The position numbers and the translations under genes are program-made. DNA of 64,000 bases from a virus. Under the pieces are notes generated by a model. It was not told where the DNA came from. It did no database searches and was given only the letters and a program-made list of their open reading frames with translations. Location: IMG/VR virus record IMGVR_UViG_3300046167_000876; one strand, 5' to 3'. Shown one piece after another: positions 27,732-54,748 of this stretch (within the stretch, counting starts at the first letter, position 1; the number at the start of each line of letters is the position of its first letter).

Positions 27732-28148
27732 ATGAAAACAATTAAATTAGCAATACTAACATCTACTATGTCAATAGGATTTATATGTTCCTACTTTATG
27801 GAACTTACAATGCAAAATGCAGAACAATATTTAGCTATTTCAACTTTAGTATTTGCTGATGGGTTTTTTGGGATTCTTGCAGGAATTAAGAGAGAAGGAT
27901 TTAAAACTTACAAAGCAATAAAAATTTTAAGAACTTTAATATTTTGGGTTATTATGTTAACTGTAATATTAGTTATAGAAAAAAGCATTCCAGGAGCTGG
28001 GTGGTTAAGTGAAACTATGCTTATGCCTTTAGTTGTATTTCAATTAATAAGCACTGTAAAAAATGCATCAATGGCTGGATTTATTAAAGGTGATGTTTTA
28101 AATCAAATCCTAGATAATATCGATAGACATAAAGGCCTTAGAAAATAG
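27732..28148 (+). CDS. Holin-like membrane protein
   Basis: 3-4 TM helices, D.F.GI and S..KNA...G motifs. Confidence 0.6.
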   Translation: MKTIKLAILTSTMSIGFICSYFMELTMQNAEQYLAISTLVFADGFFGILAGIKREGFKTYKAIKILRTLIFWVIMLTVILVIEKSIPGAGWLSETMLMPLVVFQLISTVKNASMAGFIKGDVLNQILDNIDRHKGLRK

Positions 28149-28185
28149 GTTGTCTTAATTCAATTTTTTTACTATATTTATAATC

Positions 28186-28524
28186 ATGTATAGATACAAC
28201 GCAAAATTAGATCGGGTTGTTGACGGAGATACTGTCGATGCCTTAGTAGACTTAGGATTTAATACCTGGAAAAAGGTAAGAGTTCGAATGATGGGGATGA
28301 ATGCCCCTGAATCTCGTACAAGAGATTTAGAAGAAAAAAAACGTGGATTAGCTGCTAAAGCAAGATTAATTGAATTATTAGGAGATGGTAATTTTATTTT
28401 ACAATCTCATGGGGTTGGAAAATATGGTAGATGTCTAGGTACCCTATTTGTAAAAGATACAGATATAAATAAAACTTTAATTAATGAGGGACATGCAACA
28501 GAATACTTTGGGGGTGCTAGATAA
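28186..28524 (+). CDS. Thermonuclease (SNase) family protein
   Basis: RVVDGDT, VR..G.NAPE, GKYGRCL, IN..L..EG.A. Confidence 0.88.
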   Translation: MYRYNAKLDRVVDGDTVDALVDLGFNTWKKVRVRMMGMNAPESRTRDLEEKKRGLAAKARLIELLGDGNFILQSHGVGKYGRCLGTLFVKDTDINKTLINEGHATEYFGGAR

Positions 28525-29695
28525 GATAAAACAAGGAATGTTTCCATTCCTTATTGGATTTTCTGCCCTGTCAGTTTCAGCTTCAGCTGCTTTCTATTCA
28601 GTTAGTGGCTTAAGCAAACTTTTTGCAGGAGCAAGTTTAGAAGTAATTATAATGGCAGGTTCATTAGAATTTGCTAAATTAGTTACAGCTTCACTTTTAT
28701 ACCAATATTGGGATACAATTAATAAATCTTTACGTACTTATTTATCTATAGCAACTATTATACTAGTATTAATTACTAGTATGGGTATTTATGGATTTTT
28801 AAGTGCTGCTTATCAAGAAACGTATTCTAAATTATCAACTATAGAAAATCAAAAAGGTTTTATTCAAAAGAAAATTGAATTTTATCAAAATGATGTAAAT
28901 CGATATGATGAGGAAATTAAAAGAATATCTAGTAATATTAGTACTTTATCTAATGCAAAAGCTTCGACCATCCAAGTACGAGACACCACGGTATCTGGAG
29001 GCTTTAGACAAACAATATCCACAACTGAGCTTAGAATGGCGCAGAGTCGTATTAACATTGAGGAGGAGAATCGTAAGTTGGCGCAAGAAAAACGAACTAT
29101 AGCATCTGATAGTCTTCAAAAATTCCAATTACAAGTATTAGATTTAGATAATAATAATGAAGTGGCTGGAGAATTAGGACCACTACAGTATTTATCGGGT
29201 TTAACGGGTACTTCTATGGATAAGATTATAAATTGGTTATTACTTATTATAATATTTGTATTTGATCCTTTAGCAATATCTCTTGTAATAGCAGCCAACT
29301 TTGCTTTTACTCAAGCTTATCCAAAAAAGAAATATAGAAAAAATTTATATGGAGAAAAAATAGAAGACATTGAAGTTAAAGATGCTGAGGAAATCCAAAC
29401 CCAAGATGAGTTTATGAAAAATTTAGATAATCTTGAAAAGATTAAAGATTGGGAAGCAGCAGAACGAAGAATGGAAATTATAGGTCAAAATGGAAACGAT
29501 GGAGAACATTACTCAGGATTAGACTTAAATAATGATGGTGTTATTAATGAAAAAGATATTGAAATTGCTAAAAATAGAATAAAAGAAATTGATAGTATAT
29601 TAGAAAAAACTCCAAATTTATCTCGAGAATGGGCTAAACGTTTATCTATTGAAAGAAGAAAATTAGATGATGATGAAAATACAAAAATTTATTAA
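28484..29695 (+). CDS. Multi-TM coiled-coil protein with C-terminal EF-hand/dockerin-like loop (start uncertain)
   Basis: N-terminal TMs, coiled coil, IIFVFDPLAI, DLNNDGVINEKD. Confidence 0.7.
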   Translation: MRDMQQNTLGVLDKIKQGMFPFLIGFSALSVSASAAFYSVSGLSKLFAGASLEVIIMAGSLEFAKLVTASLLYQYWDTINKSLRTYLSIATIILVLITSMGIYGFLSAAYQETYSKLSTIENQKGFIQKKIEFYQNDVNRYDEEIKRISSNISTLSNAKASTIQVRDTTVSGGFRQTISTTELRMAQSRINIEEENRKLAQEKRTIASDSLQKFQLQVLDLDNNNEVAGELGPLQYLSGLTGTSMDKIINWLLLIIIFVFDPLAISLVIAANFAFTQAYPKKKYRKNLYGEKIEDIEVKDAEEIQTQDEFMKNLDNLEKIKDWEAAERRMEIIGQNGNDGEHYSGLDLNNDGVINEKDIEIAKNRIKEIDSILEKTPNLSREWAKRLSIERRKLDDDENTKIY

Positions 29696-29867
29696 ATTTC
29701 TTATAATTTGGATTAGTCAAAATCTAGCAATCCCTTTTTGGGTTGTAGGTCATATTCACTTATCAATTCATAATTTTCATGATTTAATAGAAATTGGGGC
29801 ATCAATAGGAATGAATTTAATAGTAGCAATTGGGTTTTTTATAGATTATAAAGAAAATGGAAAGTAA
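29667..29867 (+). CDS. Small membrane protein
   Basis: Two hydrophobic segments, WISQNLAIPFW..GH.HL. Confidence 0.6.
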   Translation: MMMKIQKFIKFLIIWISQNLAIPFWVVGHIHLSIHNFHDLIEIGASIGMNLIVAIGFFIDYKENGK

Positions 29868-30234
29868 GGAAATACTACAAATAGCAAATAAAGTATACCC
29901 TAAAATTAGGGCTCATTATGGTTTAGGTAAAAAAGAATACCCACCAATTGAAGTGTATAGAAATATATTTGCTAGACTAAGTGGAGAACCAGATATGGAA
30001 GGTGATGATCCTGCAGAAGCTGAATTTGACCGTAAAACAAATAAGTTATTTATATACTCAGACTTTAATGATAGTGTTGAGGATGTAATTAGGGGAGTTA
30101 TTCATGAGTATATACATTATTTACAATCTGGATCTTGGATGAAAAGATATTATAGTATGGGTTATACTTATGGTAACCACCCATATGAAGTTGATGCTAA
30201 AAAAGCAGAAGAAGATTGGAAGTTATTTGTGTAA
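29857..30234 (+). CDS. Zincin-like metallopeptidase
   Basis: HEYIH (HExxH) and P.E..A. Confidence 0.7.
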   Translation: MESKEILQIANKVYPKIRAHYGLGKKEYPPIEVYRNIFARLSGEPDMEGDDPAEAEFDRKTNKLFIYSDFNDSVEDVIRGVIHEYIHYLQSGSWMKRYYSMGYTYGNHPYEVDAKKAEEDWKLFV

Positions 30235-30289
30235 TATGTGGATACCTGAATAAGGGTTCGTATATTTAAGTATAAGAAAAATAAAGGTC

Positions 30290-30472
30290 ATGAATAATCT
30301 AGCACAAAAATCTTTAGTTATTGGTATTATAGTATTAGCAATGATATTTATTCCATTACTTATCAAAGCAGTATTTTGGATATTATTACAATTATTTAAT
30401 TTTCCATTCCAATCGTTATTAATCTCAATTATAGTTATATGTTTGATATCCCTCTTACCAGAAAAGAAGTAG
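30290..30472 (+). CDS. Small membrane protein
   Basis: Two TM segments; downstream of promoter TGTG-N20-TATATT at 30237-30266. Confidence 0.55.
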   Translation: MNNLAQKSLVIGIIVLAMIFIPLLIKAVFWILLQLFNFPFQSLLISIIVICLISLLPEKK

Positions 30473-30948
30473 ATAAACAATTATCACAATATCAAAAAAT
30501 AAACTATAACCAGTTTAGATGGTGGAGGAGTTATCAACCAAAAAATAAACCACTTGATAATCGCAAACCACTTCGTGAGCGTATATTCAATGGTGATTTT
30601 GATTATTCATGTTATAAAGCTCAACAATATCAAGTCGAATATCAATTGAATGATATACTAAAAGAGTGTGGTATGGATTACGCAAAGTATTTAGAAAAAA
30701 CCCCCGTTATTAGAGCACGAAGAAAACGTTTAATGGAAGATTTTGAAAAAGATGAAACTGAAAGATTACGTTCTTTAACAGTTGAATTTACAAAATACTT
30801 TAGATGTAATAGAGAACAAGTTGAAGAAGAAATGTTAAAATGTAGTGGCTCCCTAATAGATCTTTATTATATTATAGAAGAAAAATATAAAATAGTCCAT
30901 ATGCCTTATCCTTTAAAGCGTAGAGGACGACCCAAAAAAGTTATATAA
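30439..30948 (+). CDS. Hypothetical protein
   Basis: 169-aa ORF with C-terminal RRGRPKK AT-hook-like motif. Confidence 0.65.
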   Translation: MFDIPLTRKEVDKQLSQYQKINYNQFRWWRSYQPKNKPLDNRKPLRERIFNGDFDYSCYKAQQYQVEYQLNDILKECGMDYAKYLEKTPVIRARRKRLMEDFEKDETERLRSLTVEFTKYFRCNREQVEEEMLKCSGSLIDLYYIIEEKYKIVHMPYPLKRRGRPKKVI

Positions 30949-31746
30949 ATGAAAGTATCACACGAAGTACCTAGATGTTTACTAAAAGCATCACAAGAAT
31001 TTAATGATTATGATTATTGCTTACCTCATCTATTAGATCAAGATGAAGAATATAAACAATATTTTTATAATGCTAAAGAAGAAGGACGTTATGTTATCAT
31101 GGATAATTCACTTCATGAATTAGGAGAAGCATATGATTATGATAGATTAAGATATTGGGTCAATGAATTAGAACCAAATGAATTTATTGTACCAGATGTT
31201 TGGATGAATTGTTCTCAAACAGCGGCACAAGCTAAATATTGGAAACAATTTAAATATCCTAAAAAAACTAAACTCACAGCTGTAATTCAGGGTGAAGATA
31301 AGAATCAAGCTTATCTATGTGCTACTTTATTAGCAAATTTAGGATATAAAAAATTATGTGTATCTTATGGTGCTACTTGGTATAATGATTTTTTCCCACA
31401 TACTAACGCAGATATGGGAAAAGCATTAGGTAGAGTACGATTTGTACAAGGTTTATTTAAGATAAAACATTTAAAAGATATTAAATTTCATTTATTAGGT
31501 TGTTCAATTCCACAAGAATTTGGTTGGTATGATGATGGTTTTTCATCAAGAATTGAATCAATTGATACTTCTAATCCAGTAATGGCAGCTTTAGATGGAA
31601 CTAAATATAATAGTAATGGAATGAATTATAAACCAAATGCTAATATGAATGATTTTTTTGATGTTAAATTTGAAGATATTAAATACGAAGATATTATTTA
31701 CAACACAACACAATTTAGAAGAATTAATAATTTAAAAATCAAATAA
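30949..31746 (+). CDS. TGT/DpdA-like guanine transglycosylase-fold protein
   Basis: MDNS, VPDV, VIQG, HLLG and SIDTS correspond to TGT TIM-barrel catalytic motifs; adjacent to que genes. Confidence 0.7.
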   Translation: MKVSHEVPRCLLKASQEFNDYDYCLPHLLDQDEEYKQYFYNAKEEGRYVIMDNSLHELGEAYDYDRLRYWVNELEPNEFIVPDVWMNCSQTAAQAKYWKQFKYPKKTKLTAVIQGEDKNQAYLCATLLANLGYKKLCVSYGATWYNDFFPHTNADMGKALGRVRFVQGLFKIKHLKDIKFHLLGCSIPQEFGWYDDGFSSRIESIDTSNPVMAALDGTKYNSNGMNYKPNANMNDFFDVKFEDIKYEDIIYNTTQFRRINNLKIK

Positions 31747-31748
31747 TT

Positions 31749-31943
31749 ATGGCAAAGTTAACAAGAAATGTAAATTACGCAAATTACAGATGGGAAGAAT
31801 ATGTGCTAACAGAAGAAGAATTAGCACAATGGAAAACAGGTGATGAAGATCTCCAACAAGAAATCATAGATAATGCAGATTGGGACCTAGTAAGAGATAA
31901 ACCAATTGATGATTATAGTGAACCAGAATTTGTAGAAGAATAA
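31749..31943 (+). CDS. Small acidic hypothetical protein
   Basis: 64-aa ORF tightly packed between neighbours. Confidence 0.6.
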   Translation: MAKLTRNVNYANYRWEEYVLTEEELAQWKTGDEDLQQEIIDNADWDLVRDKPIDDYSEPEFVEE

Positions 31944-31947
31944 AGAT

Positions 31948-32133
31948 ATGGCAGAATTTATAAGACACGCACTAGGACTTTGTGGAGAACACTATCATCC
32001 AAACTTATGGACTCTTTTAATAGGAGGAGTTGGATTTTCAACTATTTTTTCGTATGTTCGATCATATATAAAATGTAAATTTAATCAAGCGTTAGCCTAT
32101 ACGCGAAATACCTGGCAAATTTTAAATAAGTAA
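31948..32133 (+). CDS. Small membrane-associated hypothetical protein
   Basis: H.LGLCGEH.HPNL followed by a TM segment. Confidence 0.55.
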   Translation: MAEFIRHALGLCGEHYHPNLWTLLIGGVGFSTIFSYVRSYIKCKFNQALAYTRNTWQILNK

Positions 32134-32136
32134 ATT

Positions 32137-32925
32137 ATGGCACATTGTGTAGTAAGTTTAAGTGGTGGAATGGATAGTAGCACCCTATTGTTAAGAGCTA
32201 TCGAGAAATATGATACTGTAACAGGTATCTCATTTGACTATGGTCAAAAACACAGAGTAGAGCTAGAGAGAGCTCAATCATTAATTGATTACCTTGCAAG
32301 TAAAGGTCACAAAGTAAATTATCGTCAAATCAAATTAGATGGATTAGTAGATCTACTAGACTCAGCTTTGGTTACAGGTGGAGATGATGTACCAGAAGGA
32401 CATTATGAGCAAGATAATATGAAAGAAACAGTTGTTCCTAACAGAAATAAAATGTTTGCTTCTATTACTCAAGCAGTTGCATTATCTGTAGCAAATAGAA
32501 CAGAAGATGTTTGTGATATTGCTTTAGGTATTCATGCTGGTGATCATGCAGTTTATCCTGATTGTAGACAAGAATTTAGAGATGCAGATGATGCAGCTTT
32601 TAGAATTGGAAACTGGGATGCAGATAGAGTAGGTTACTTTACACCTTATTTAGATACTGATAAATTTGGTATTCTACAAGATGGAGAAAAATTATGTGAA
32701 ATTTTAGGTATTGATTTTGATGAAGTTTATAAAAGAACAAATACTTCTTATAAGCCTTATCCTTCGGGAAATAGTGATTATAAGTCTGCTTCTAGTGTTG
32801 AGAGGATTGAGGCTTTTATTGCTCTTGGCAGAAAAGATCCCGTACAGTATGAGGATGAAACTGGAGAAGTTGATTACGAAGTAGCAGAAACCCATGTAAA
32901 ACAAGTATTAGCTGAATATGAATAA
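32137..32925 (+). CDS. queC: 7-cyano-7-deazaguanine synthase
   Basis: SGGMDS PP-loop, FDYGQKH..E, VPNRN, YPDCR.EF; lacks the canonical C-terminal CxxC Zn ligands. Confidence 0.92.
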   Translation: MAHCVVSLSGGMDSSTLLLRAIEKYDTVTGISFDYGQKHRVELERAQSLIDYLASKGHKVNYRQIKLDGLVDLLDSALVTGGDDVPEGHYEQDNMKETVVPNRNKMFASITQAVALSVANRTEDVCDIALGIHAGDHAVYPDCRQEFRDADDAAFRIGNWDADRVGYFTPYLDTDKFGILQDGEKLCEILGIDFDEVYKRTNTSYKPYPSGNSDYKSASSVERIEAFIALGRKDPVQYEDETGEVDYEVAETHVKQVLAEYE

Positions 32926-33088
32926 TAAAAAACAAGAATTACCTGATGCAAGATTGCATCAAAGAATTAGTTTCATCAAATCAGGCATTCGTATCTTAGG
33001 ATACGGTGCCTTATGGTGGAGCTTGGACATTGCAGTTATTTTACTTATATTAAGTGAAGTAGTTGGAATAGGAGAAGAATTAGTATAA
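32918..33088 (+). CDS. Small membrane protein (56 aa, not in ORF track)
   Basis: MNNKKQELPDARLHQRISFIKSGIRILGY...ILSEVVGIGEELV. Confidence 0.6.
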   Translation: MNNKKQELPDARLHQRISFIKSGIRILGYGALWWSLDIAVILLILSEVVGIGEELV

Positions 33089-33105
33089 TAACCAAAATTT
33101 AAAAT

Positions 33106-33354
33106 ATGAAAAAAATAATTTATTTTAGTGCTCCTTGGTGTGGTCCTTGTAAAGTTTTAGGACCAACTATAGAAAGATTAACTGGTGAGTTACCTATTAC
33201 AAAAGTTAATGTAGATGAAGATAATACTATTTCTGCTAAATATGGAATTAGAAACATTCCTACATTGGTTTTAATAGATCAAAATGGTAAAGAAATTAAT
33301 AGAATAGTAGGAAACATTTCAGAACAACAAATAAAACAATTTTATAATGGGTAA
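33106..33354 (+). CDS. Thioredoxin
   Basis: WCGPC active site, IPT. Confidence 0.92.
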   Translation: MKKIIYFSAPWCGPCKVLGPTIERLTGELPITKVNVDEDNTISAKYGIRNIPTLVLIDQNGKEINRIVGNISEQQIKQFYNG

Positions 33355-33811
33355 ATTTCAATCAAGTAAAGTATTTGACGGGTTTAGTACAGTGTTTCGT
33401 CAATGGAAAGCTACAACAACACACTGTAGGTTTGTACATGGTTATGGAATTTCATTTAAAGTATATTTTGAAGGCGATTTAGACGAAAGAAATTGGGTTT
33501 GGGACTTTGGAGGTATGAAAAGAGCTAAAACTAAAATAGATGGTAAGTCTCCTAAAGAATGGATGGATTATATGTTTGATCATACTTTAATTGTTGCTGA
33601 AGATGACCCATTTTTAGAAGCATTTAAGCAAATGGAAGAATCAGAAGTAGCTCAAGTTAGAGTAATCCCAGCTACTGGTGCAGAAAAATTTGCTGAATAT
33701 ATTTATACTAAATTAAATAGTTTTGTTCAAACTGAAACTGAAGGTAGAGTAAGAGTTACTAAAGTTAAGTTTGCGGAACATGGAAAAAATGCTGCTTATT
33801 ACAGCGAGTAA
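33347..33811 (+). CDS. queD: 6-carboxytetrahydropterin synthase
   Basis: HCRFVHGY, WVWDFG, FDHT, TGAE. Confidence 0.88.
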   Translation: MGKFQSSKVFDGFSTVFRQWKATTTHCRFVHGYGISFKVYFEGDLDERNWVWDFGGMKRAKTKIDGKSPKEWMDYMFDHTLIVAEDDPFLEAFKQMEESEVAQVRVIPATGAEKFAEYIYTKLNSFVQTETEGRVRVTKVKFAEHGKNAAYYSE

Positions 33812-33853
33812 GTTATAATAGTGAATGAAAAACCACTTAAAAAAATTAACAAT

Positions 33854-34639
33854 ATGCACAAACAATTGAAACGTATTGAGGATTACGATAAAAATCTTCC
33901 GATTGTAGAAGTTTATACTGCAGTCCAATCTGAAGGCTCTAGAGCAGGATACCCCACAGTAGTAATTAGAACAACAGGATGCACTCACAGATGTTATTTC
34001 GGTGAAGGTGGTTGGTGTGATAGTTGGTATACAAGTATCCACCCAGAAAAAGGCCAATTTAATTTTAATAATATTATACAAAAGTATAAAGATAATCCTC
34101 ATATTAAAGAGATGATGCTTACTGGTGGTTCACCTACTATGCATCCCGCTTTAGTAAATGAGTTAACCCATTTTGCACATGAAAATGATATATTCATTAC
34201 TATCGAAACTGAAGGATCTCATTTCCTCCCCACTGATTATCCTATTAATCTTTTGTCAATTTCTCCTAAGTTTAGTAATAGCGTTCCCGTTGTTGGTGTT
34301 GCTACTCCTCAAGGAGGAATTACAGACGAAAGGATGGTTAAAAAACATAATTCGAAAAGGTTGAATTATGAAGCAATGAAACAATCAATTGCTTACCACT
34401 CAGACTATCATATTAAACCAGTATGGGATGGTAAAGATGAAGATGCGTTAGCTGAAATTATGGATTGTTTAGAAAAACTTGAAGTATCCCAAGATAAAGT
34501 TTGGTTTATGCCCGCAGGTGATTCAAGAGAAGCATTATTTAAATCATACCCCATATTATTTGATTGGGTAAGAGATAATGGTTACAGAATGACTTGGAGA
34601 CCCCACATTATAGCATTTGAAGATCAAAGAGAAGTATAA
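33854..34639 (+). CDS. queE: 7-carboxy-7-deazaguanine synthase (radical SAM)
   Basis: VQSEG...G, RT.GC..RC...WCDS, LTGG.P, IETEG, SPK. Confidence 0.9.
   Translation: MHKQLKRIEDYDKNLPIVEVYTAVQSEGSRAGYPTVVIRTTGCTHRCYFGEGGWCDSWYTSIHPEKGQFNFNNIIQKYKDNPHIKEMMLTGGSPTMHPALVNELTHFAHENDIFITIETEGSHFLPTDYPINLLSISPKFSNSVPVVGVATPQGGITDERMVKKHNSKRLNYEAMKQSIAYHSDYHIKPVWDGKDEDALAEIMDCLEKLEVSQDKVWFMPAGDSREALFKSYPILFDWVRDNGYRMTWRPHIIAFEDQREV
34179..34364 (+). CDS. Candidate nested +1-frame membrane protein inside queE
   Basis: 61 aa with LIILLIFCQFLLSLVIAFPLLVLLLL hydrophobic stretch. Confidence 0.45.
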   Translation: MKMIYSLLSKLKDLISSPLIILLIFCQFLLSLVIAFPLLVLLLLKEELQTKGWLKNIIRKG

Positions 34640-34803
34640 TGAATAAAATTTGGAGGTATTGGGCTAGAGCATTAGGTGAAAAGGTAGGAGAAGATAATAA
34701 AAAAGCAGATACTGTAGCTTGGATTAGAACTTTTATTATAGCGCAAGCTGTAATAACAAACCTGCTTATAGCTATTAACATTTTAATAGTTTGGTTTGGA
34801 TAA
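34639..34803 (+). CDS. Small membrane protein (54 aa, not in ORF track)
   Basis: WRYWARALGEK...AD.VA.IRT plus TM; start overlaps queE stop (TAATG). Confidence 0.6.
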   Translation: MNKIWRYWARALGEKVGEDNKKADTVAWIRTFIIAQAVITNLLIAINILIVWFG

Positions 34804-35004
34804 GCAAGAAGCCCTTCGTATATTAGAGGAAATAGAAGAAAATGTTAATACCTGCTGTGCTATTACTATGGAACCAGATGATGTATTAGTATTAATAGAT
34901 AAATTGAAAGAATATTTAAATGAAAAAAATTAAAAATATAGTTATATTAAAAATATTTTTATTTAAATTATGGTTACAAAGAATTAAAATTAAAATCAAG
35001 TTAA

Positions 35005-35703
35005 ATGTCAGAAAATAAACGTAGAAAAGTTCATGAAGAATTAGAAGTAGTAAAAGTAGGTTATGCGAATGGTGTTGCAGAAGGATTTCCCTTTACAGAT
35101 AAAGAAAAATTAAAAATGATTGATAAAGCAGAAAAAGCTTATGGTAAGTTTTTAGATGCTTTAAAATGTGATTGGAGAGATGATCCCAATTCAATGGAAA
35201 CACCTCGACGAGTAGCTAAAGCTTATGTGAATGATCTATGGGCTGGTAGATACACAGCAATGTCCCCAATTACATCATTTCCCTCGGATGGTTATGATGG
35301 TATTGTTATTGAACGTAACATACCATTAACTTCAATGTGTTCTCATCACCATCAAACAATTGGAGGTGTAGTTCATATTGGATATATAGCAGGAGAAGGT
35401 GGTCAAGTAATTGGTTTATCTAAATTAAACAGAATTGTAGAATTATTTGGTCGTAGAGGAGCAATACAAGAACAATTAACATCAGCAATCCATAATGCTG
35501 TAGATAAAATTACAGAAGGAAATAAAGGTGTTATTGTTACTATAGTAGGTACTCATAATTGTGTATCTTGTAGAGGAGTTAAACATCAGGGTGCAGCAAT
35601 GGTTACAACTAAAGCATCAGGTGTATTTAAAGATAATAAAAATTTAGCTCGTAAAGAATTCTTTGATAGTCTTAAAATTAATAACGGGGGACATAATATA
35701 TAA
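35005..35703 (+). CDS. folE: GTP cyclohydrolase I
   Basis: ETPRRVAK, SMCSHH, GLSKLNR, QEQLT, HNCVSCRGV. Confidence 0.95.
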   Translation: MSENKRRKVHEELEVVKVGYANGVAEGFPFTDKEKLKMIDKAEKAYGKFLDALKCDWRDDPNSMETPRRVAKAYVNDLWAGRYTAMSPITSFPSDGYDGIVIERNIPLTSMCSHHHQTIGGVVHIGYIAGEGGQVIGLSKLNRIVELFGRRGAIQEQLTSAIHNAVDKITEGNKGVIVTIVGTHNCVSCRGVKHQGAAMVTTKASGVFKDNKNLARKEFFDSLKINNGGHNI

Positions 35704-35708
35704 GAGAA

Positions 35709-36167
35709 ATGGCATTAGTAGACAAATCAGAAAATAAAATATATTTAAGTTGGGGAGATATTAATGATGCGGTTGATAACTTATGTAACAAGATTAGACA
35801 TGATCAACCCAACATAGACTCAATCCATGGTATTGCTAGGGGAGGATTAATTCCCGCAGTTTTAATTTCTCATAAATTAGGTTTACCTTGGACTGATGTT
35901 ATTTTACCTAATACTTTAGTAGTAGATGATGTATGTGATTCAGGGGTAACATTAGAAAATGCACCAGGTGTTTGGACAGCAGTATTACATTATAAACCCC
36001 ACACATCATGTTTTCAACCTAGTATATGGGCAGAAATACATGAAGGTGATGAGTGGTTAATTTACCCTTGGGAAACTAAAGATTCAAAACCTATTCAAGA
36101 TTATTTAAAACCTGGAGCTAAAGAATATAGAGATAAACTAGATGAATATTATAAATCAAATGAATAA
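35709..36167 (+). CDS. Type I phosphoribosyltransferase (purine PRT-like)
   Basis: GIARGGL.PA, VVDDVCDSGVT PRPP-binding loop, W..YPWE. Confidence 0.88.
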   Translation: MALVDKSENKIYLSWGDINDAVDNLCNKIRHDQPNIDSIHGIARGGLIPAVLISHKLGLPWTDVILPNTLVVDDVCDSGVTLENAPGVWTAVLHYKPHTSCFQPSIWAEIHEGDEWLIYPWETKDSKPIQDYLKPGAKEYRDKLDEYYKSNE

Positions 36168-36169
36168 AT

Positions 36170-36367
36170 ATGGAATATTGGCAAATTAAAACTCAAAATG
36201 AATTTGAGAATGAAAGAGGTAGGATACAAAAAACAACTGAATTATATTTAGTAGTAGCAGTATCAGCAACGGATGCAGAAGCTAAGATGTACAAACATAA
36301 TGAAGGTATGTCTAATTTTAGAGTTGTAGAAGTAAAGAAAACCAAATTTTTAGAAGTAATAAGCTAA
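36170..36367 (+). CDS. DUF4494-like small protein
   Basis: K..E.YLV.AVS.TDAEAK pattern typical of the Bacteroidota family. Confidence 0.55.
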   Translation: MEYWQIKTQNEFENERGRIQKTTELYLVVAVSATDAEAKMYKHNEGMSNFRVVEVKKTKFLEVIS

Positions 36368-36906
36368 TGGGAAAACAATTAGAATTATTTAGCAAAGCCG
36401 ACGTGCCCTTTGTTAATGAAGTAGAAACTTTTAACCGCACGTTCGGAAAACCAAACAATTATGAACCGACAATACCAGAAAAAAAGGAGTGGGAATTCGT
36501 ATACGACTTTGTACTTGAAGAATTGGAAGAATATAGACAGGCTTGCGAAAACGGAGACATCGTGGAAGTTTTGGATGCTCTGTGTGATATTGCTTACGTT
36601 TCCCTTGGGAACGGTACTATGTTACACGGCCTTAAAGATAAGATATGGCCTGCATATCAAGAAGTACAAGGAAGCAATATGTCGAAGTCTTGTAGCACTA
36701 AAGAGGAAGCCATGGAAACTGTCACCCTCCGCTCTAAAGAACAAGATGAGCCATGTCACTTTGAACAGATCGAAGACCGATTCGTAGTATACAGAACACG
36801 TGATCGTAAAGTAATGAAATCAATTAATTACTATAGACCAGATTTAAAACAATTCTTTACAGGAGATGAATTACAAAAATTCCATAAACCAGCAACCTTT
36901 ATTTAA
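36367..36906 (+). CDS. MazG-like all-alpha NTP pyrophosphohydrolase (DR2231/PRA-PH type)
   Basis: EELEE...EVLDALCDIAYV..G, EV..SNMSK, KVMK. Confidence 0.85.
   Translation: MGKQLELFSKADVPFVNEVETFNRTFGKPNNYEPTIPEKKEWEFVYDFVLEELEEYRQACENGDIVEVLDALCDIAYVSLGNGTMLHGLKDKIWPAYQEVQGSNMSKSCSTKEEAMETVTLRSKEQDEPCHFEQIEDRFVVYRTRDRKVMKSINYYRPDLKQFFTGDELQKFHKPATFI
36461..36787 (+). CDS. Candidate nested +1-frame basic single-TM protein inside MazG-like gene
   Basis: 108-codon ATG ORF; TM FWMLCVILLTFPLGTVLCYTAL; host codon usage shifts to G/C-ending codons over the overlap. Confidence 0.5.
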   Translation: MNRQYQKKRSGNSYTTLYLKNWKNIDRLAKTETSWKFWMLCVILLTFPLGTVLCYTALKIRYGLHIKKYKEAICRSLVALKRKPWKLSPSALKNKMSHVTLNRSKTDS

Positions 36907-38657
36907 TGTATAAAAAGTGTTATTTAGGAGATAAAATAAAACCTAATGTTTTTCAAATGCATCTTTGGGAAGAAGATGGGGGACATCAAATTATTGAATA
37001 TGAAAATGTAGCATATCAAGAATGTACTGAAGAAGAACATACACATAAAGGATTAAATGGAGAATTTTTAAAATCCCAACCTAAATGGTTTTATTCTAAA
37101 AATCCGGATTATAGTCATAAAAATACACCTGGTTTACATTTCCATGATATGAAACCTCATCAAAAATTTTTAGTTGAGCGTTATGGTGTAAATGATGTTC
37201 CTTCTAAGGGACATAGAGAAGTATTTTTTGATATTGAGTGTGAAATAGGAGGAGCATTAACTGAAGAATATATTGAAGATGCTCCTATGCCTATTACTTC
37301 TATTGCTTGGTGGGATAAACAAAAAGATTATTGGTCTATACTTATTTTAGATAAAAAAAATCAACTATCACATACTAAAACAGGAAAAAATAAAAATAAA
37401 GAAATTATTCCTTGTACTACAGAAAATGAATTGTTAGCTAAATTTATTGAAGCTATAAGAGAGATGGATCCCGATATACTAGTAGGTTACAACTCAGATT
37501 ATTTTGATATACCTTATTTATATTATAGAATGTGTAGAACAATAGGTAAAGATTGGGCTGATCATTTATCTCCTATTGGTAAAGTAGTTTCTAAGAAAAA
37601 TAATAAATATTTTTTTAAACAAAATCAATATGTAGATATTGTAGGTATTGAATCTTTAGATTATATTCGTTTACATAAAAAATATAGTTGGAAAGATGAA
37701 CCAAGTTGGAAATTAGATGCAATTGGGGCCAAATATGTAGGTATGAATAAAGTTGAATATGATGGAAATTTAGATCAACTATTTGAAACTGATATTCATA
37801 AATTTATTCAATATAACTTTGTTGATGTAGAAATTTTACAAAAGTTAGATGAAAAATTACAATATTTAGCTTTAACTAAAAACTTATCCCATAAAGGTAA
37901 GCATAATTATAGTGAAGTTTATTCTAATAGTATTACTCAAGATGGAGCAATTTCTGCTTATTTATTATCCCAAAATATAGTTCCACCTCCTAAAGAACCT
38001 TTCCCTCAAAAGAAAGATAGTTATGCAGGAGGATATCTTTTTTGCCCTAAAGCAGGATTATACAAATATATGTTTGATGAAGATTTAACATCGTTATACC
38101 CATCTATAATTATGTCAATTAACATTGGTAAAGAAACATTCGTGGGTCGTATTATAGATGCAGATGACCGTAATAATAGATTGGGTCTTAACGATTTAAA
38201 AGAACGTGACCCCGAAGAAAAATTATTAGTAGAAAATGCAAAACGAAAACAAACCTATGTTAATGCTGGTAGGTTAGTTGAAATGATCAAACAAAATGAT
38301 TTAGCAGTAGCGGCTAATGGTTCAATGTTTAGAACAGATAAAGAAGCAGTATTATCCACTATACTTAAAAAATGGTTTAAGGAGCGTGTTATTTATAAAA
38401 ATGCAATGAAAAAAGCATATAAAGAAGGAAACAAAGAATTAGGTGAATATAATCATTTAATGCAATACACAATGAAAATTCTTTTAAATTCATTGTATGG
38501 TGCAACTGCATTACCTTCATTTAGGTATGGTATGAATTTCCAAACCCTAAGTGAAGCAATTACATTATCAGGACACAGAATAATCCAAGAATCAGCCCTT
38601 TGTGCTAATAGACATATGAATAAAGTTATGCGAGGGGAATTAAAATTAGAAATATGA
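36906..38657 (+). CDS. DNA polymerase family B, N-terminal subunit (exonuclease plus motifs A and B)
   Basis: FDIE, GYN...FD.PY, YN..DV, DLTSLYPS, KILLNSLYG. Confidence 0.93.
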   Translation: MYKKCYLGDKIKPNVFQMHLWEEDGGHQIIEYENVAYQECTEEEHTHKGLNGEFLKSQPKWFYSKNPDYSHKNTPGLHFHDMKPHQKFLVERYGVNDVPSKGHREVFFDIECEIGGALTEEYIEDAPMPITSIAWWDKQKDYWSILILDKKNQLSHTKTGKNKNKEIIPCTTENELLAKFIEAIREMDPDILVGYNSDYFDIPYLYYRMCRTIGKDWADHLSPIGKVVSKKNNKYFFKQNQYVDIVGIESLDYIRLHKKYSWKDEPSWKLDAIGAKYVGMNKVEYDGNLDQLFETDIHKFIQYNFVDVEILQKLDEKLQYLALTKNLSHKGKHNYSEVYSNSITQDGAISAYLLSQNIVPPPKEPFPQKKDSYAGGYLFCPKAGLYKYMFDEDLTSLYPSIIMSINIGKETFVGRIIDADDRNNRLGLNDLKERDPEEKLLVENAKRKQTYVNAGRLVEMIKQNDLAVAANGSMFRTDKEAVLSTILKKWFKERVIYKNAMKKAYKEGNKELGEYNHLMQYTMKILLNSLYGATALPSFRYGMNFQTLSEAITLSGHRIIQESALCANRHMNKVMRGELKLEI

Positions 38658-38918
38658 CATTAAAAAAACAATCTATTAGAAAAAATCAACTAATTACTGT
38701 AGAAGGTAAACCTATATCTAAAGAAGAAATAATCACTAGAAGTGAAAAATGGAGTGAAATCCAAGAGAATTTTTTTAAAAAAATGCTTAAACAAGGGGGG
38801 AACATTTAAAGTAGCGGGAATAAAATATAAAGTAGAATTAATTGAAAGAAGTGATTTAGACTCTAACGGAAATAAACCAATAACTGTACCACCATTACCA
38901 GGTGAAAGAACATTTTAA
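38654..38918 (+). CDS. Small hypothetical protein between polB halves (extra G in G6 run near 38795)
   Basis: MTLKKQSIRKN...FFKKMLKQGG continues as TFKVAGIKYKV...PGERTF when one G is removed. Confidence 0.55.
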
Positions 38919-38920
38919 TT

Positions 38921-39616
38921 ATGATATTACAAGAGGCATTTAATTGGTATTTAAATTATAACCCAAATACTGATTCTTTAAGATCTTCTCAATTAAATAA
39001 AGTAATTGGGGAAATAGAAGATGAATTTATTAGTAATTTTGATTCTTCTAAAAAAATAATTTGTATAGAAACAGGTGCTTCCCATAATTGGAATGATGGT
39101 TGTGTTGGAGCTTTTTTTGCAAAATTATGTGAATTAACAAATGGGAAATTCTATTCTGTAGATATAAATTCTGAATTAATTGATAATAGTAAAACATTAT
39201 ATAATAGCTTAGGATTTACTAATATAACTCATCATATTGATGACTCAGTAAATTATTTAAAGAATACAAAAGTTATTCCTAATATAGTTCATTTGGATTC
39301 ATGGGATTTAAATCTTCGAGATCCTTTTCCTAGTGCATTACATGGGTGGAATGAATTTTTAGCTATTGAAGATAAAATGCCTTTAGGGTCTCTTTTAATT
39401 ATAGATGATAATTATTTTAATGGAACTTGGGTTAATTGGAAAGATAATCGTAATGATAAAGAATGGGATAGAGTAACAATTAATTATCCAATTGTAGGTA
39501 AAGGAAGTCATATTTACAGTTATGTTGAAAGTGGTAATAGTAATTGGATAAAATTAAGTAATGACCATGTTGGAACAAATGAAAAATTAGTTTATAAAAA
39601 AGTAAAATTATGTTAG
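38921..39616 (+). CDS. Class I SAM-dependent methyltransferase-like protein
   Basis: IETG, SVDI, DS, HLDS, IIDD motifs. Confidence 0.6.
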   Translation: MILQEAFNWYLNYNPNTDSLRSSQLNKVIGEIEDEFISNFDSSKKIICIETGASHNWNDGCVGAFFAKLCELTNGKFYSVDINSELIDNSKTLYNSLGFTNITHHIDDSVNYLKNTKVIPNIVHLDSWDLNLRDPFPSALHGWNEFLAIEDKMPLGSLLIIDDNYFNGTWVNWKDNRNDKEWDRVTINYPIVGKGSHIYSYVESGNSNWIKLSNDHVGTNEKLVYKKVKLC

Positions 39617-39993
39617 TAGAAATTTCAAACGGAGAATTATTAGATAAAATTTCAATTTTAGAGTTAAAATTACTTAAAATTGAAGATGAAGAAAAACTAA
39701 TAAATATTAAAAAAGAATTTGAAACATTAAACCCTTTAGTAATAGAACTATTTGAAAAGTATGATGGTCAATTACAAAATCATTATCTTGAATTAGCTAA
39801 AATTAATGGTCAACTTTGGGATATAGAAGATTGGATTAGAGATTGTGAACGTGAAAAGAGATTTGATAAAGAATTTGTAGAACTAGCCCGTTCTGTGTAT
39901 ATTACCAATGATAAAAGATGTGAAGTTAAAAAATTAATCAATTTAATGACCTCATCAGGATTAGTAGAAGAAAAATCATATAAAGAATATTAA
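39610..39993 (+). CDS. DUF6165-like protein
   Basis: S.GELLDKISILELK, N..LWDIED.IR, ARSVY.TND.R, EEKSY. Confidence 0.7.
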   Translation: MLVEISNGELLDKISILELKLLKIEDEEKLINIKKEFETLNPLVIELFEKYDGQLQNHYLELAKINGQLWDIEDWIRDCEREKRFDKEFVELARSVYITNDKRCEVKKLINLMTSSGLVEEKSYKEY

Positions 39994-40928
39994 TGAAACA
40001 TTTAGAAGAAACACCTTGGTGGATATGTGATACAGATGATGAAAATTATTGTGCCTACGTTGATACTGATTCTAATTATTTTAATGCTGAACCTTTACTT
40101 TTTAAGTTATATCCTAATTTTGAAGAATTATCTGCAGAAAAAAAAGATGATATTTTAGAAAAGGTAGCAATGAAATATCAAGATGTAATTAATGAAGATT
40201 ATGATAGATTAGCTAAAGAGTGTTTTAATGTAACTGAACATCGACTTGAAATGAAAACTGAATGTGTTATTCGTTCAGCTTATTTTAGAGCAACTCGTCG
40301 TTATGCTCAATGGATTACTAAACAAGAAGGAATTGCTAAAGAATCTTTAGATATTAAAGGTTTGGAATTTATGAAAGCAAATTTTCCACCTATCTTAGGA
40401 TCATTTTTTAATGACATACTTCAACAGGTACTAAAAGGTGAAGAAAAATCTAGTATTTTAGATCAAATTAAAATATTTAAAAAACAAATCTTAGATGGTA
40501 CAATACCACTTACTAAACTAGGTAATCCATCAGCAGTTAAAAAATTAGAAAAATACTCGGGTAAAAATGCTAGAGCAGGAGAAATGTTTACAGAAATACT
40601 TAAAGGAGCTCCTGCACCTGTACGTGCTACAATTCGTTATAATGATTTATTAAGGTTATGGCAATTAGATAAAAAATATAATTTAATTACACAAGCAGAT
40701 AAAGTTAAATGGATTTATTTAAGAGATAACCCTTATAAAATAGAAGCATTAGCATTTCAAGATTTTGATGTGCCTGAAAAAATTAATGATTTTTTAAATG
40801 CTTATGCTGATAGACAAAAAGTATTTGATTCAATATTATTAAATAAATTAGAAGGATTCTTTAGTGACTTACAATGGTCATTAGATTTAAATCCTTATAC
40901 AAATGCATTAGCATCTTTTGAGATATAA
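39993..40928 (+). CDS. DNA polymerase family B, C-terminal subunit (motif C plus thumb)
   Basis: YVDTDS, RRYA, IKGLE. Confidence 0.9.
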   Translation: MKHLEETPWWICDTDDENYCAYVDTDSNYFNAEPLLFKLYPNFEELSAEKKDDILEKVAMKYQDVINEDYDRLAKECFNVTEHRLEMKTECVIRSAYFRATRRYAQWITKQEGIAKESLDIKGLEFMKANFPPILGSFFNDILQQVLKGEEKSSILDQIKIFKKQILDGTIPLTKLGNPSAVKKLEKYSGKNARAGEMFTEILKGAPAPVRATIRYNDLLRLWQLDKKYNLITQADKVKWIYLRDNPYKIEALAFQDFDVPEKINDFLNAYADRQKVFDSILLNKLEGFFSDLQWSLDLNPYTNALASFEI

Positions 40929-40951
40929 AATAAACTTCGTATATTACAACT

Positions 40952-41674
40952 ATGGTAAATAAAACAACACTAACATCAGTTATTTCAAAATATTATTTAA
41001 ATGGTTTAAATAATCAAGTAAAATGGCGTATTAAAGATAACCAATTAACTGTTTATGCGGGTGAAAATGGTAGAGTATGTAAAGTAATACATAATAATTT
41101 TAACCTTGAAGACTCAGAATTAGGTGTATTTGATACTCATAAACTTAGTAAATTACTTTCTATCACCAACGGTGAATTAAATATTTCACTTGAAAAAATT
41201 AAAGCGGTTTATACTAAAATACATATCGCTGATTTAAACTTTGATTTAACTTATTCATTAGCTGATATTTTAATTTTAGGTAAAAATACTTATTATGAAG
41301 ATCCTGAAGAATTTGAAATACAAATTGATTTAACAAATGAAGATATTAATCATTTAATTAAAGCTAAAAGTGCTTTAGCTGATGTTAATAATATGTTAAT
41401 CACAAGTACCACAGATATGGATGGGACTAATATATGTGAAATTATATTTGGTGATAATACAGGATTTTCAAATAAAATTACTTATCAGCTTAGAGGTAAT
41501 ATTACTAAAGGAGATATTCAAATTCCTTTTGATTCAGATATATTTAAAGATATTTTAAATGCTAATAAAGATATGGAAAGTGGTACACTGAAAATATCTG
41601 AAGTAGGAATGTTAAAATTAAATTTTTCAACAACAGAAACAGAAAGTGAATACTTTATTGCAAGAAATGAGTAA
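40952..41674 (+). CDS. Sliding clamp (gp45-like)
   Basis: Size, beta-rich two-domain pattern, follows polB; promoter at 40917-40945. Confidence 0.65.
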   Translation: MVNKTTLTSVISKYYLNGLNNQVKWRIKDNQLTVYAGENGRVCKVIHNNFNLEDSELGVFDTHKLSKLLSITNGELNISLEKIKAVYTKIHIADLNFDLTYSLADILILGKNTYYEDPEEFEIQIDLTNEDINHLIKAKSALADVNNMLITSTTDMDGTNICEIIFGDNTGFSNKITYQLRGNITKGDIQIPFDSDIFKDILNANKDMESGTLKISEVGMLKLNFSTTETESEYFIARNE

Positions 41675-41694
41675 ACACATATGTATAATAGAAC

Positions 41695-42224
41695 ATAAAA
41701 TGGAGCTAGGGCACGTGTTATGTTTAAATTAAATTAACCGAGAGCTACGGCCTCACAAAACTAAATGATATGAGTACATTATTCAATGAACGTACACCGT
41801 TCGACTTACTATTCCGTAACTTTTTTAAAGCAGACGGATCTTTTCAACCAACAACGTTTGACAACAAACAACCTCACCCACTAGATATTTTTTACGACGA
41901 AGAAGGGCTTCACTTTGAGATTGCCTGTACTGGTCTAACTAAAAAAGATATTCAACTAGAAATAGATGGAGATCTTTTAAAAATTATCTATGATAAACCA
42001 AAAGAAGAAGAAGATTATTCTGGTTATATCTATAAAGGATTAGCTAAACGATCTTTTAATCTAGGTTATAAAGTAGCAGCTAAATTTGAACTTGAAAGTT
42101 TAACTGCTGGAATGAAAGATGGCTTACTTCATATTTTTATTCCAATAGCTGAATCTAAGAAGCCAAAAACAATTAAAATTCAATAATAAGTTTTATTAAA
42201 AAAGCGTGTCCTAGCGCATTTTAT
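41695..42224 (+). repeat. Imperfect inverted repeat flanking hsp20 (41695-41716 / 42204-42224)
   Basis: ATAAAATGGAGCTAGGGCACGT pairs with GCGTGTCCTAGCGCATTTTAT: 20 bp with two G-U pairs and a 2x1 internal loop. Confidence 0.85.
41770..42186 (+). CDS. Small heat shock protein Hsp20/IbpA-like
   Basis: HP.DI, EIAC.G..K.DI, YKGLAKRSF, A.MKDGLL.I. Confidence 0.9.
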   Translation: MSTLFNERTPFDLLFRNFFKADGSFQPTTFDNKQPHPLDIFYDEEGLHFEIACTGLTKKDIQLEIDGDLLKIIYDKPKEEEDYSGYIYKGLAKRSFNLGYKVAAKFELESLTAGMKDGLLHIFIPIAESKKPKTIKIQ

Positions 42225-42256
42225 TTCGTATATTAACGTCTAAATAAATAAGTTAT

Positions 42257-42574
42257 ATGATAAAAAAAAGAAAGTCTATTCAGACTATTACCGATCCCTT
42301 ACTAGAACCATTCTTTATTACTAAGGACGAATACAGTTATACTGTAAAACAAAATGTGACATCTGATGCCAATCATTTTAGGGCTAAAGGTAAAGCAAAA
42401 ACTTATGAAAAATCCCTATATTATTATGCTAATTTTGAACAGGCTTTACAAAAAATAGCTAAATTACAAGCTGATATTGAAGATTTTGATAGTTTAGATG
42501 AATATATTAACAATTATACAAAAATAAGTACTAACATTAAAAATTATACAAATGGAATTAGAAGCATTGTTTGA
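42257..42574 (+). CDS. Hypothetical protein
   Basis: 105-aa ORF between hsp20 and groES. Confidence 0.7.
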   Translation: MIKKRKSIQTITDPLLEPFFITKDEYSYTVKQNVTSDANHFRAKGKAKTYEKSLYYYANFEQALQKIAKLQADIEDFDSLDEYINNYTKISTNIKNYTNGIRSIV

Positions 42575-42863
42575 TGCCGTTATTGTAAAACCCCAAGAAG
42601 TTGAAGAAACTACTTATGGGTCAATTATTGTGCCTGATTTAGGTAAAGATAGAAATGAGCATGGAACTGTAGTAGCAGTAGGTCCTGGTAAACCAACTGT
42701 AACTGGAACTTTTTTACCAACAACTGTAAAGGTTGGGGATAAAGTAGTTTTACCAACAGTAGGTTTTACTAAATTACAACATTTAGGAGATGAATATTAT
42801 ATTGGCCCCGAAAATCAAATTTTAGCAAAAATTAACCAAACAGAGAAAAAAGAAGATGAATAA
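42552..42863 (+). CDS. groES: Co-chaperonin GroES
   Basis: LFDAVIVK, G.IIVPD, GTVVAVGPG, VKVGDKV. Confidence 0.92.
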   Translation: MELEALFDAVIVKPQEVEETTYGSIIVPDLGKDRNEHGTVVAVGPGKPTVTGTFLPTTVKVGDKVVLPTVGFTKLQHLGDEYYIGPENQILAKINQTEKKEDE

Positions 42864-44475: not shown

Positions 44476-44493
44476 CCAATAAATAATAAAAAA

Positions 44494-44661
44494 ATGACAA
44501 AACAAGAAATTTTTGAGATTATTGAAACAAATTTCAATATCTTAGCAGCAGAAAACGATGGAACTACTAAGGCAAGTCAAGCACGAGCTAGAAAAGCAGC
44601 CCAAGCTATTAAACGAGTAATCACAGATTATAAAAAAGCATCTGTGGCTGAGTCAAAATAG
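44494..44661 (+). CDS. Histone H1-like (Hc1-type) small basic protein (55 aa, not in ORF track)
   Basis: TKASQARARKAAQAIKRVITDYKKAS resembles the Bacteroidota Hc1-like KA...RARK...Y/FRK.S pattern. Confidence 0.65.
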   Translation: MTKQEIFEIIETNFNILAAENDGTTKASQARARKAAQAIKRVITDYKKASVAESK

Positions 44662-44672
44662 TTTCGTATATT

Positions 44673-46521: not shown

Positions 46522-46748
46522 CAAAAGAATTATATAATATGTTAAAAACATCTGCTGAGGCAGATAAAGCTAAAGCATTATTATCACTTGAATTACTTGG
46601 TAATAAAGCAGTAGGAATTGGAGATCACTCTACAGAAGATTTTTATAAAAATGCTGAAGAAGCACTTATAAATCTAGTTGATGCTGATGATAGATTAGCA
46701 GCACTAAATACTTATTTTCTAGATAGTAAAGAACAAATCAATGGGTGA
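46518..46748 (+). CDS. Hypothetical protein
   Basis: VGIGDHS motif, helical. Confidence 0.7.
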   Translation: MTKELYNMLKTSAEADKAKALLSLELLGNKAVGIGDHSTEDFYKNAEEALINLVDADDRLAALNTYFLDSKEQING

Positions 46749-52455: not shown

Positions 52456-52457
52456 AT

Positions 52458-54747: not shown

Positions 54748-54748
54748 T

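Follow-up and report, generated by a model that had tools for sequence, protein, structure and literature searches.

The guanine transglycosylase family DpdA3 was defined by Cui, Hutinet et al. 2023 (PMC10516641), and the parts of that paper on which we draw name it as the inserting enzyme and report that 100% of guanine (G) is replaced in Cellulophaga phage phiST (by 2'-deoxy-7-deazaguanosine, dDG), in Flavobacterium phage immuto (by 7-formylaminomethyl-deazaguanine, fdPreQ1) and in Campylobacter phage CP220 (by the amide dADG). The same parts give a much lower figure for CAjan, a phage with DpdA1, in which 32% of G is replaced by preQ0, and conclude that all 7-deazaguanine modifications are post-replicative, a conclusion that stands there beside a DpdA3 activity never demonstrated. 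A literature search for DpdA3 work later than the 2023 paper found none. Here we analyse the viral record IMGVR_UViG_3300046167_000876 from IMG/VR, a stretch of 64,000 nt (hereafter the window, in whose coordinates all positions are given), in which a run of genes at 30949-40928 brings together a DpdA3 homologue, the enzymes for making a 7-deazaguanine base, a phosphoribosyltransferase (PRTase), a MazG-like pyrophosphatase and a family B DNA polymerase (PolB).

We conclude that the window carries a QueF-less and DpdN-less member of the already described DpdA3 class, with a QueC that lacks its cysteines and a split PolB. For the working of the cluster, a reading with about an even chance of being right is that it is a DpdA3-type 7-deazaguanine module in which base exchange by DpdA3 is accompanied by recycling of guanine through the PRTase and by housekeeping of the nucleotide pool through the MazG-like protein.

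The cluster and its relatives

Consistent with the original prediction, which had listed a run of genes from a TGT-like (guanine transglycosylase) protein through polB, we found each of these genes at its place and on the + strand (Table 1). The arrangement is not peculiar to the window. In IMG/VR, the DpdA3 of 80 contigs (hereafter the clade) shares 65-96% identity with that of the window, and these contigs keep the order u403, u169, DpdA3, QueC, thioredoxin (Trx), QueD, QueE, FolE, PRTase, MazG, PolB-N, (DUF6165), PolB-C, u240, Hsp20, GroES and GroEL, while FolE, PRTase and MazG stand together in all 37 clade loci with enough flanking sequence. Because the order is conserved in 80 contigs and this trio in 37/37 loci, the gene arrangement cannot be put down to chance, and the coupling of the PRTase and the MazG-like gene to the cluster, as originally predicted, is that of genuine conserved companions. 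The predicted absence of queF was borne out in the window, where a tblastn search with immuto QueF was negative, and extends to the relatives: neither QueF nor DpdN was found in the 80 clade loci, nor did a search of an 85%-complete relative with PF14489 (QueF) give a match.

Directly upstream of DpdA3, u169 adjoins it in 74/80 clade loci and in 24/80 loci of a second set of type I. It gave no Pfam or PHROG match, and an atlas search was uninformative; its RGRPKK tail resembles an AT-hook, so that u169 might bind DNA as a partner of DpdA3.

The identities of the genes, together with the kinship to immuto, whose DNA is fully modified, uphold the claim that the cluster is a 7-deazaguanine DNA-modification module. 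One could instead suppose that the genes serve host queuosine or folate metabolism or tRNA modification rather than phage DNA, as was once proposed for Que genes found without DpdA (Hutinet et al. 2019). This is very improbable here, since the cluster includes a conserved DpdA3 homologue and stands in a neighbourhood of replication genes, and since the closest isolate, immuto, has fully modified DNA in the account of Cui et al. 2023 on which we draw.

DpdA3 and the base that it would insert

The TGT-like protein has no Pfam match, and phmmer searches with it and with the MazG-like protein against PDB sequences gave nothing useful. By tblastn it matches the immuto protein annotated 'DNA guanine transglycosylase' (34% identity, E 1e-42) and those of the Campylobacter CP220 group (35-36% identity, E 1e-38), and a profile made from 86 diverse DpdA3 members finds immuto (6e-108), CP220 (1.5e-82) and phiST CGPG_00065 (5.7e-27). 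On these similarities the protein belongs to the DpdA3 family, so that the TGT/DpdA-like identity first proposed for it can be narrowed to a subfamily. Its homologues number 3,938 in clusters at 90% identity and 1,543 representatives at 50%. An AlphaFold model (pLDDT 97.2, pTM 0.93) has the TIM-barrel fold of TGT and resembles archaeosine TGT 1IQ8, the Z. mobilis TGT and DpdA 7UI4 at Z 16.5-16.9 and a root-mean-square deviation of 3.2-3.4 A over ~232 residues.

Four residues, D52, D83, H181 and D206, are invariant in the 86 diverse homologues. The catalytic residues of bacterial DpdA are Asp95, Asp130, His181 and Asp256 (PMC10164549), and the four residues of DpdA3 appear to parallel its acid/base Asp, its base-recognising Asp and His, and its nucleophile Asp. 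In an hhalign comparison the motifs LDNS, HLLG and DTSNP of DpdA3 correspond to LDSG, HAFG and CDSS in a DpdA1 protein, although the probability of this alignment is low. DpdA3 thus looks like a competent base-exchange enzyme, as far as sequence and model go, and its substrate, DNA or a free nucleotide, is not something that can be read from the sequence.

Several features that might have pointed to the substrate did not. The structural Zn site of TGT and bacterial DpdA (CxCxxC...H) has no counterpart in the 86 homologues, which share no conserved Cys cluster; because the phage DpdA1 of VogelGryff likewise lacks the motif, its loss does not set DpdA3 apart from phage DpdAs that act on DNA and cannot be taken as a sign against DNA binding. 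Charge is uninformative as well (median isoelectric point of the family 5.6, against 6.0 for E. coli Tgt and 6.3 for DpdA1), and domain fusions gave no clue, DpdA3 being fused only with DpdN-type formyltransferases and homing-endonuclease modules. In two metagenomic proteins (P0294 and P0363) DpdA3 is naturally fused to a formyltransferase domain of the DpdN type (PF00551), which suggests that both enzymes act on one substrate.

The nature of the inserted base turns on QueC and on what follows it. The window's QueC has the SGGMDS motif and is 70% identical to that of immuto; it scores above the cut-off of PF06508, and its 130 bits with TIGR00364 fall under the equivalog cut-off of 150. As had been predicted, it lacks the Zn-binding Cys cluster, all four cysteines being replaced both in the window and in immuto, and they are kept in Campylobacter F379, in MaInes and in VogelGryff, a dPreQ0 phage. 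The further suggestion that the product may for this reason differ from preQ0 does not hold: in immuto a QueC with the same loss lies upstream of QueF and DpdN, and the DNA carries a preQ1 derivative. Because immuto has QueF, DpdN and fdPreQ1 DNA, its Cys-less QueC presumably still makes preQ0, and the lost Zn site was therefore rejected as a mark of another product. Since QueF and DpdN are missing in the clade, the predicted base of its DNA is dPreQ0, or, less likely, dADG should QueC stop at the amide. By analogy with the three DpdA3 phages that have been analysed, we infer that replacement of G in the window's phage would be complete.

The phosphoribosyltransferase

Among isolated phages, homologues of the PRTase occur almost wholly in DpdA3 lineages (immuto, the CP220 group, phiST and its relatives, and MaInes/StAshley); for comparison, QueC is encoded by 239 phage records. 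The gene adjoins FolE in the window, in immuto and in MaInes, and in phiST it adjoins a deoxynucleoside monophosphate (dNMP)-kinase-like gene near ribonucleotide reductase (RNR). Searched against known structures, its profile matches HGXPRT and XGPRT proteins best (1VDM, E 3e-25; XGPRTs, 1e-12 to 1e-13), which by sequence makes it a 6-oxopurine PRTase of the archaeal/XGPRT type. In 41 PRTase sequences the pyrophosphate (PPi) loop residues R44-G45-G46 and D73, D74 and D77 of the phosphoribosyl pyrophosphate (PRPP) motif DDxxD[ST]G are invariant, and W116 is nearly so; we take D77 to be the Asp that contacts purine N7 in the HGPRT/XGPRT class. These motifs are constant across phages with different final bases. 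A hairpin forming the flexible catalytic loop, between the PPi loop helix and the PRPP motif, is missing through a deletion of ~23 residues relative to 1VDM, 4Z1O and 4TRB; most phage homologues share the deletion, and phiST, MaInes and a few others keep the loop segment.

The original prediction had offered two roles for this enzyme. The first was that it makes a 7-deazaguanine nucleotide. In a pre-replicative route built on this, the PRTase would join a 7-deazaguanine or 7-carboxy-7-deazaguanine (CDG) to PRPP, kinases and RNR would carry the product to the deoxynucleoside triphosphate (dNTP), MazG would remove dGTP and PolB would incorporate the analogue. Deazapurine antibiotic pathways use a PRTase on preQ0 or CDG (ToyH, TubE), the gene is embedded among Que genes in four isolated lineages as well as in the window's clade, and the phage encodes both RNR and thioredoxin. 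We nevertheless consider this route improbable. A complete 163-kb DpdA3 genome with terminal repeats (G009) has no PRTase by two profiles, so the enzyme is not an obligatory step; in other DpdA3 groups it lies within 2.5 kb of FolE in 13/33, 22/37 and 6/16 informative loci, and the universal component is DpdA3, not the PRTase, one homologue of which occurs in a gut phage record without DpdA3. Moreover, D77 is invariant though final bases differ among phages, the flexible catalytic loop is missing, and the analogue would also enter RNA.

The second role, salvage of the guanine released by DpdA, fares better. The PRTase occurs in many of these phages yet can be absent, and its active site stays the same whichever base is finally made; these properties fit the recycling of expelled guanine, a product common to all these systems; given this and the kept N7-contacting Asp, re-capture of expelled guanine is its most likely function as judged from sequence. 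Neither Cui et al. 2023 nor Hutinet et al. 2019 refers to a PRTase that accompanies DpdA3, and the word 'phosphoribosyl' occurs in neither paper.

The MazG-like protein, the polymerase and the timing of base replacement

The MazG-like protein matches PF01503 above the family cut-off and has the acidic motifs EELEE and DALCD; its small neighbour, a DUF4494 protein, is joined to the same domain in P0421, a fusion of DUF4494 and PF01503. It had been predicted that MazG could remove dGTP. This is weakened by a comparison of five genomes, admittedly a small sample, in which the four with PF01503 above the cut-off have no trimeric dUTPase (4/4) and the one without such a match has it. Because the MazG-like gene alternates with trimeric dUTPase, dUTPase-like housekeeping fits it better than a dGTPase role, and the phiST homologue has the dimeric dUTPase family as its best match in the account of Cui et al. 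2023 (PMC10516641) used here. On this evidence the protein is most likely concerned with dUTPase-like care of the pool rather than being a dedicated dGTPase. The MazG-like gene and the PRTase are regular but dispensable companions of DpdA3 sets.

The polymerase (PF03104, PF00136) is interrupted after motif B and before motif C, where two genes are inserted, one methyltransferase-like and one for a DUF6165 protein. It is split in every clade locus that reaches it, and the inserts vary: DUF6165 separates the two parts in about half (23 clade loci), and the methyltransferase-like insert at 38921-39616 is present in the window only, with no homologue in the 80 clade loci. In a sister lineage (L091:7440-10004) the same polymerase is an undivided protein of 854 aa, with a 4-nt overlap between its stop and the start of DpdA3. 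The presence of PolB beside the cluster had been counted in favour of incorporation of an analogue; this argument loses weight, for a polymerase also adjoins the cluster of a DpdA1 phage, and adjacency was accordingly dropped as a sign of a tolerant polymerase.

The predicted tie between the 7-deazaguanine genes and nucleotide-pool functions proved to be wider than the window. PRTase, MazG-like, P-loop kinase, HD hydrolase and RNR genes accompany DpdA3 in several unrelated phages, and none of them was found in the cluster of VogelGryff, the single DpdA1 control. Another large group of DpdA3 contigs, of the immuto type, has DpdA3, DpdN, a kinase and QueF as a fixed block, with the kinase in 53/54 loci. 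In immuto and CP220 the kinase that adjoins DpdA3 belongs to the AAA_28 P-loop kinases and is not a true thymidylate kinase, as it has been labelled; on the other side of the CP220 DpdA3 lies a fusion of HD and AAA_33 kinase domains, and in phiST an AAA_18 kinase-like gene adjoins DpdA3. An AAA_28 kinase occurs in 5/5 near-complete DpdA3 genomes, including a relative from the window's clade (G001), where it lies elsewhere in the genome. Brevundimonas phage MaInes (ON529866) has a DpdA3-family member that carries only a hypothetical-protein annotation (L084:667-1467; profile E 2e-12), and a single run holds DpdA3, QueC, QueD, QueE, DNA polymerase, RNR, dNMP kinase, FolE and PRTase; MaInes is not among the phages analysed for DNA modification in the parts of Cui et al. 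2023 and Hutinet et al. 2019 on which we draw.

These genes can be fitted to base exchange by DpdA3 as follows. FolE, QueD, QueE and the Cys-less QueC would convert GTP to the 7-deazaguanine base, and DpdA3, a stripped-down transglycosylase of the TGT fold with its catalytic Asp kept, would exchange guanine for it; the split PolB would copy the genome. The PRTase would join the expelled guanine to PRPP, giving GMP and then GTP for return to FolE, while the MazG-like pyrophosphatase and its DUF4494 partner would perform dUTPase-like cleaning of the pool.

Several points weigh against this scheme. To our knowledge, complete base replacement is otherwise achieved through the dNTP pool, as with hydroxymethylcytosine (hmC) in T4, Z in S-2L and deoxyuridine (dU) in PBS2. 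The one-by-one exchange of ~46,000 G per genome would be demanding, and the kinases beside DpdA3 in immuto-type loci, CP220 and phiST, with the HD-kinase fusion of CP220, are left unexplained by post-replicative exchange. Lacking the flexible catalytic loop, the PRTase may have a chemistry that differs from that of its relatives, and the alternation on which the role of the MazG-like protein rests was seen in five genomes. Finally, the consulted parts of Cui et al. 2023 (PMC10516641) relate that DpdA3 assays attempted in E. coli were unsuccessful and that the cytoplasm of infected cells contained ADG nucleoside.

Alternatively, one could envision a pre-replicative route in which DpdA3 acts on a free deoxynucleoside or nucleotide. 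A hydrolase (MazG-like here, HD in CP220) would convert dGTP to dGMP or dG, depleting dGTP; DpdA3 would then put the 7-deazaguanine in place of guanine on this monomer, which P-loop kinases would phosphorylate back to the triphosphate for use by the polymerase, and the freed guanine would be recycled through the PRTase as before. The flanking kinases, the HD + AAA_33 fusion, the AAA_28 kinase of the five near-complete genomes and the MaInes run speak for this route, as does a DpdA1 control cluster without these genes. The complete replacement of G in three DpdA3 phages, the cytoplasmic nucleoside and the failed heterologous assays, as related in the same parts of Cui et al. 2023, can be read in the same direction, and a modified-dGTP route had earlier been proposed for Campylobacter phages (recorded in Hutinet et al. 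2019). We regard this route as plausible but less probable than the first scheme. The window's clade has no kinase inside its cluster; the adjacency of kinases elsewhere represents two or three independent lineages at most; and MazG alternates with dUTPase. We also know of no TGT-superfamily enzyme that acts on mononucleotides. The AAA_28 kinase may be a general dNMP kinase, as it also occurs in 89 Streptomyces phage records, and Streptomyces phages are not among the ten most frequent organism names in the 239 QueC-encoding records. Base exchange by DpdA3 with recycling of guanine is the reading that we prefer, and the choice between pre- and post-replicative replacement lies beyond what computation can decide.

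Fully 7-deazaguanine-substituted DNA resists many restriction enzymes, and for this reason how such DNA is made matters to phage biology. The DpdA3 phages are the only viruses known to us in which 7-deazaguanines take the place of all guanine, and aquatic metagenomes hold the family in great number, with its 1,543 representatives and hundreds of viral contigs. If DpdA3 did act on monomers, it would be the first TGT-fold transglycosylase to use a free deoxynucleoside or nucleotide, and G replacement would be pre-replicative in abundant marine phages. A 10-kb run with DpdA3, the base pathway, a PRTase, a pyrophosphatase and a polymerase is a convenient gene set for the biochemistry that bears on this choice.

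Genome setting and neighbouring genes

Every gene in the window is on the + strand, and its G+C content is ~29%. Tail and baseplate genes are followed by a replication block (a gp32-like single-stranded DNA-binding protein, a RecA/UvsX-like protein, a 5'-3' exonuclease, a DnaB-type helicase and both RNR subunits), the 7-deazaguanine cluster, Hsp20, GroES and GroEL, a clamp loader and a block of sugar-nucleotide and glycosyltransferase genes. Contigs carrying the window's PRTase reach 161 kb. A phage protein at 24188-24745 has a C-terminal domain for sorting to type IX secretion (PF18962, E 2e-11); because of this domain and of the kinship with immuto, the host is taken to be a member of the Bacteroidota. 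These features are best explained by a marine myophage of about 160 kb that infects Flavobacteriia-like hosts, is a relative of immuto and carries the module in its replication region.

Table 1. Positions of the genes of the 7-deazaguanine cluster and of u169.
Feature	Position	Strand	Basis or remark
u169, 169 aa, basic RGRPKK tail, directly upstream of DpdA3	30439..30948	+	conserved; without Pfam or PHROG match
DpdA3-family guanine transglycosylase homologue, TGT fold, without Zn site	30949..31746	+	sequence and AlphaFold model
Two small conserved open reading frames (64 and 61 aa)	31749..32133	+	in 37/80 and 50/80 clade loci, respectively; without family match
QueC homologue without the four Zn-binding Cys (immuto type)	32137..32925	+	PF06508 E 2e-37
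Thioredoxin, active site WCGPC	33106..33354	+	PF00085 E 1e-18
QueD (6-carboxytetrahydropterin synthase)	33347..33811	+	PF01242 E 1.5e-14; 69% identity to immuto QueD
QueE (radical S-adenosylmethionine (SAM) 7-carboxy-7-deazaguanine synthase)	33821..34639	+	phrog_2076 E 3e-53; 83% identity to immuto QueE
FolE (GTP cyclohydrolase I)	35005..35703	+	PF01227 E 2e-42
Minimal 6-oxopurine-type PRTase without flexible-loop hairpin	35709..36167	+	closest structure 1VDM, 30% identity
DUF4494 small protein, partner of the MazG-like gene	36170..36367	+	64% identity to immuto DUF4494 protein
MazG-like all-alpha nucleoside triphosphate pyrophosphohydrolase	36367..36906	+	PF01503 E 2e-10; phrog_671 E 1e-27; 72% identity to immuto 'hydrolase'
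PolB N-terminal part: exonuclease domain, motifs A and B	36906..38657	+	DLTSLYP, KILLNSLYG
Putative class I SAM methyltransferase-like insert	38921..39616	+	weak Methyltransf_31 match; atlas lead Methyltransf_24, score 0.97
DUF6165 protein inside the polymerase split	39610..39993	+	PF19662 E 5e-14
PolB C-terminal part: motif C YVDTDS, thumb	39993..40928	+	phrog_262 E 9e-47

With the NCBIfam models for FolE, the window's protein scores ~141 bits, which is under their cut-offs. An Rfam search of 28000-45000 at E up to 1 gave no match, to a known riboswitch or otherwise. A conserved 240-aa protein without a family match follows the polymerase (40952-41674); a sliding clamp would be expected to have such a size and such a place, after the polymerase and ahead of the clamp loader (44923-45858). 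A 159-aa protein encoded some 6 kb past the end of the cluster (46741-47220) matches PF07659 (DUF1599, 'nucleotide modification associated domain 1', E 3e-8) and adjoins a PD-(D/E)XK nuclease. The region 48438-57264 encodes glycosyltransferases, an NAD-dependent epimerase/dehydratase, a DegT-type aminotransferase and an RmlD-like reductase, and a similar block lies at 49-60 kb in immuto.

Comparison with known systems

The nearest isolate is immuto, which is of the same lineage and has GroES/GroEL, the sugar-nucleotide cluster and replication genes in common with the window. Its QueC, QueD, QueE, FolE, PRTase, DUF4494 protein and MazG-like hydrolase are 55-83% identical to the window's, its QueC is likewise Cys-less, and it has a DpdA3. 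The two differ in that immuto has QueF, DpdN and an AAA_28 kinase beside DpdA3 and a polymerase of family A, to none of which anything in the window corresponds; the window's DpdA3, at only 34% identity, heads the cluster, and its polymerase is a split PolB.

CP220 (Firehammervirus; Crippen et al. 2019, as cited in Cui et al. 2023 and Hutinet et al. 2019) resembles the window in its DpdA3 (35-36% identical), in having a PRTase homologue and in having QueC without QueF, and because of this last feature the end products of the two may be of the same class. Its genes, however, are scattered, and its DpdA3 lies between the HD-kinase fusion and the AAA_28 kinase; the related Firehammervirus F379 differs from the window in a QueC that keeps its Zn-binding Cys. 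In phiST, which makes dDG with FolE, QueD, QueE, DpdL, DpdA3 and a MazG/dUTPase-like protein, FolE stands beside the MazG-like gene and DpdA3 near the polymerase, and the genome has a PRTase homologue. In contrast to the window, phiST has no QueC but the decarboxylase DpdL, and its PRTase keeps the loop segment and sits beside RNR and the dNMP-kinase-like gene.

The dPreQ0 systems of Seuratvirus with DpdA1 (CAjan, VogelGryff) share with the window FolE, QueD, QueE, QueC, a small Zn-less DpdA of the TGT fold and an adjoining polymerase. They differ in the partial replacement of G reported for CAjan (the figure cited above, from the parts of Cui et al. 2023 on which we draw), in the VogelGryff cluster, which is without PRTase, MazG or kinase, and in the DpdA subfamily, to which the low hhalign probability noted above applies.

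Replacement before replication is the rule in T4 with hmC, in the Z-genome of S-2L with PurZ, MazZ and DatZ, and in PBS2 with dU. The likeness of the window to T4 and S-2L is one of working only: one region brings together a base-synthesis enzyme, a nucleoside triphosphate pyrophosphatase and a polymerase, and related phages have their base wholly replaced. The key enzyme is not homologous, however, and the window has a transglycosylase.

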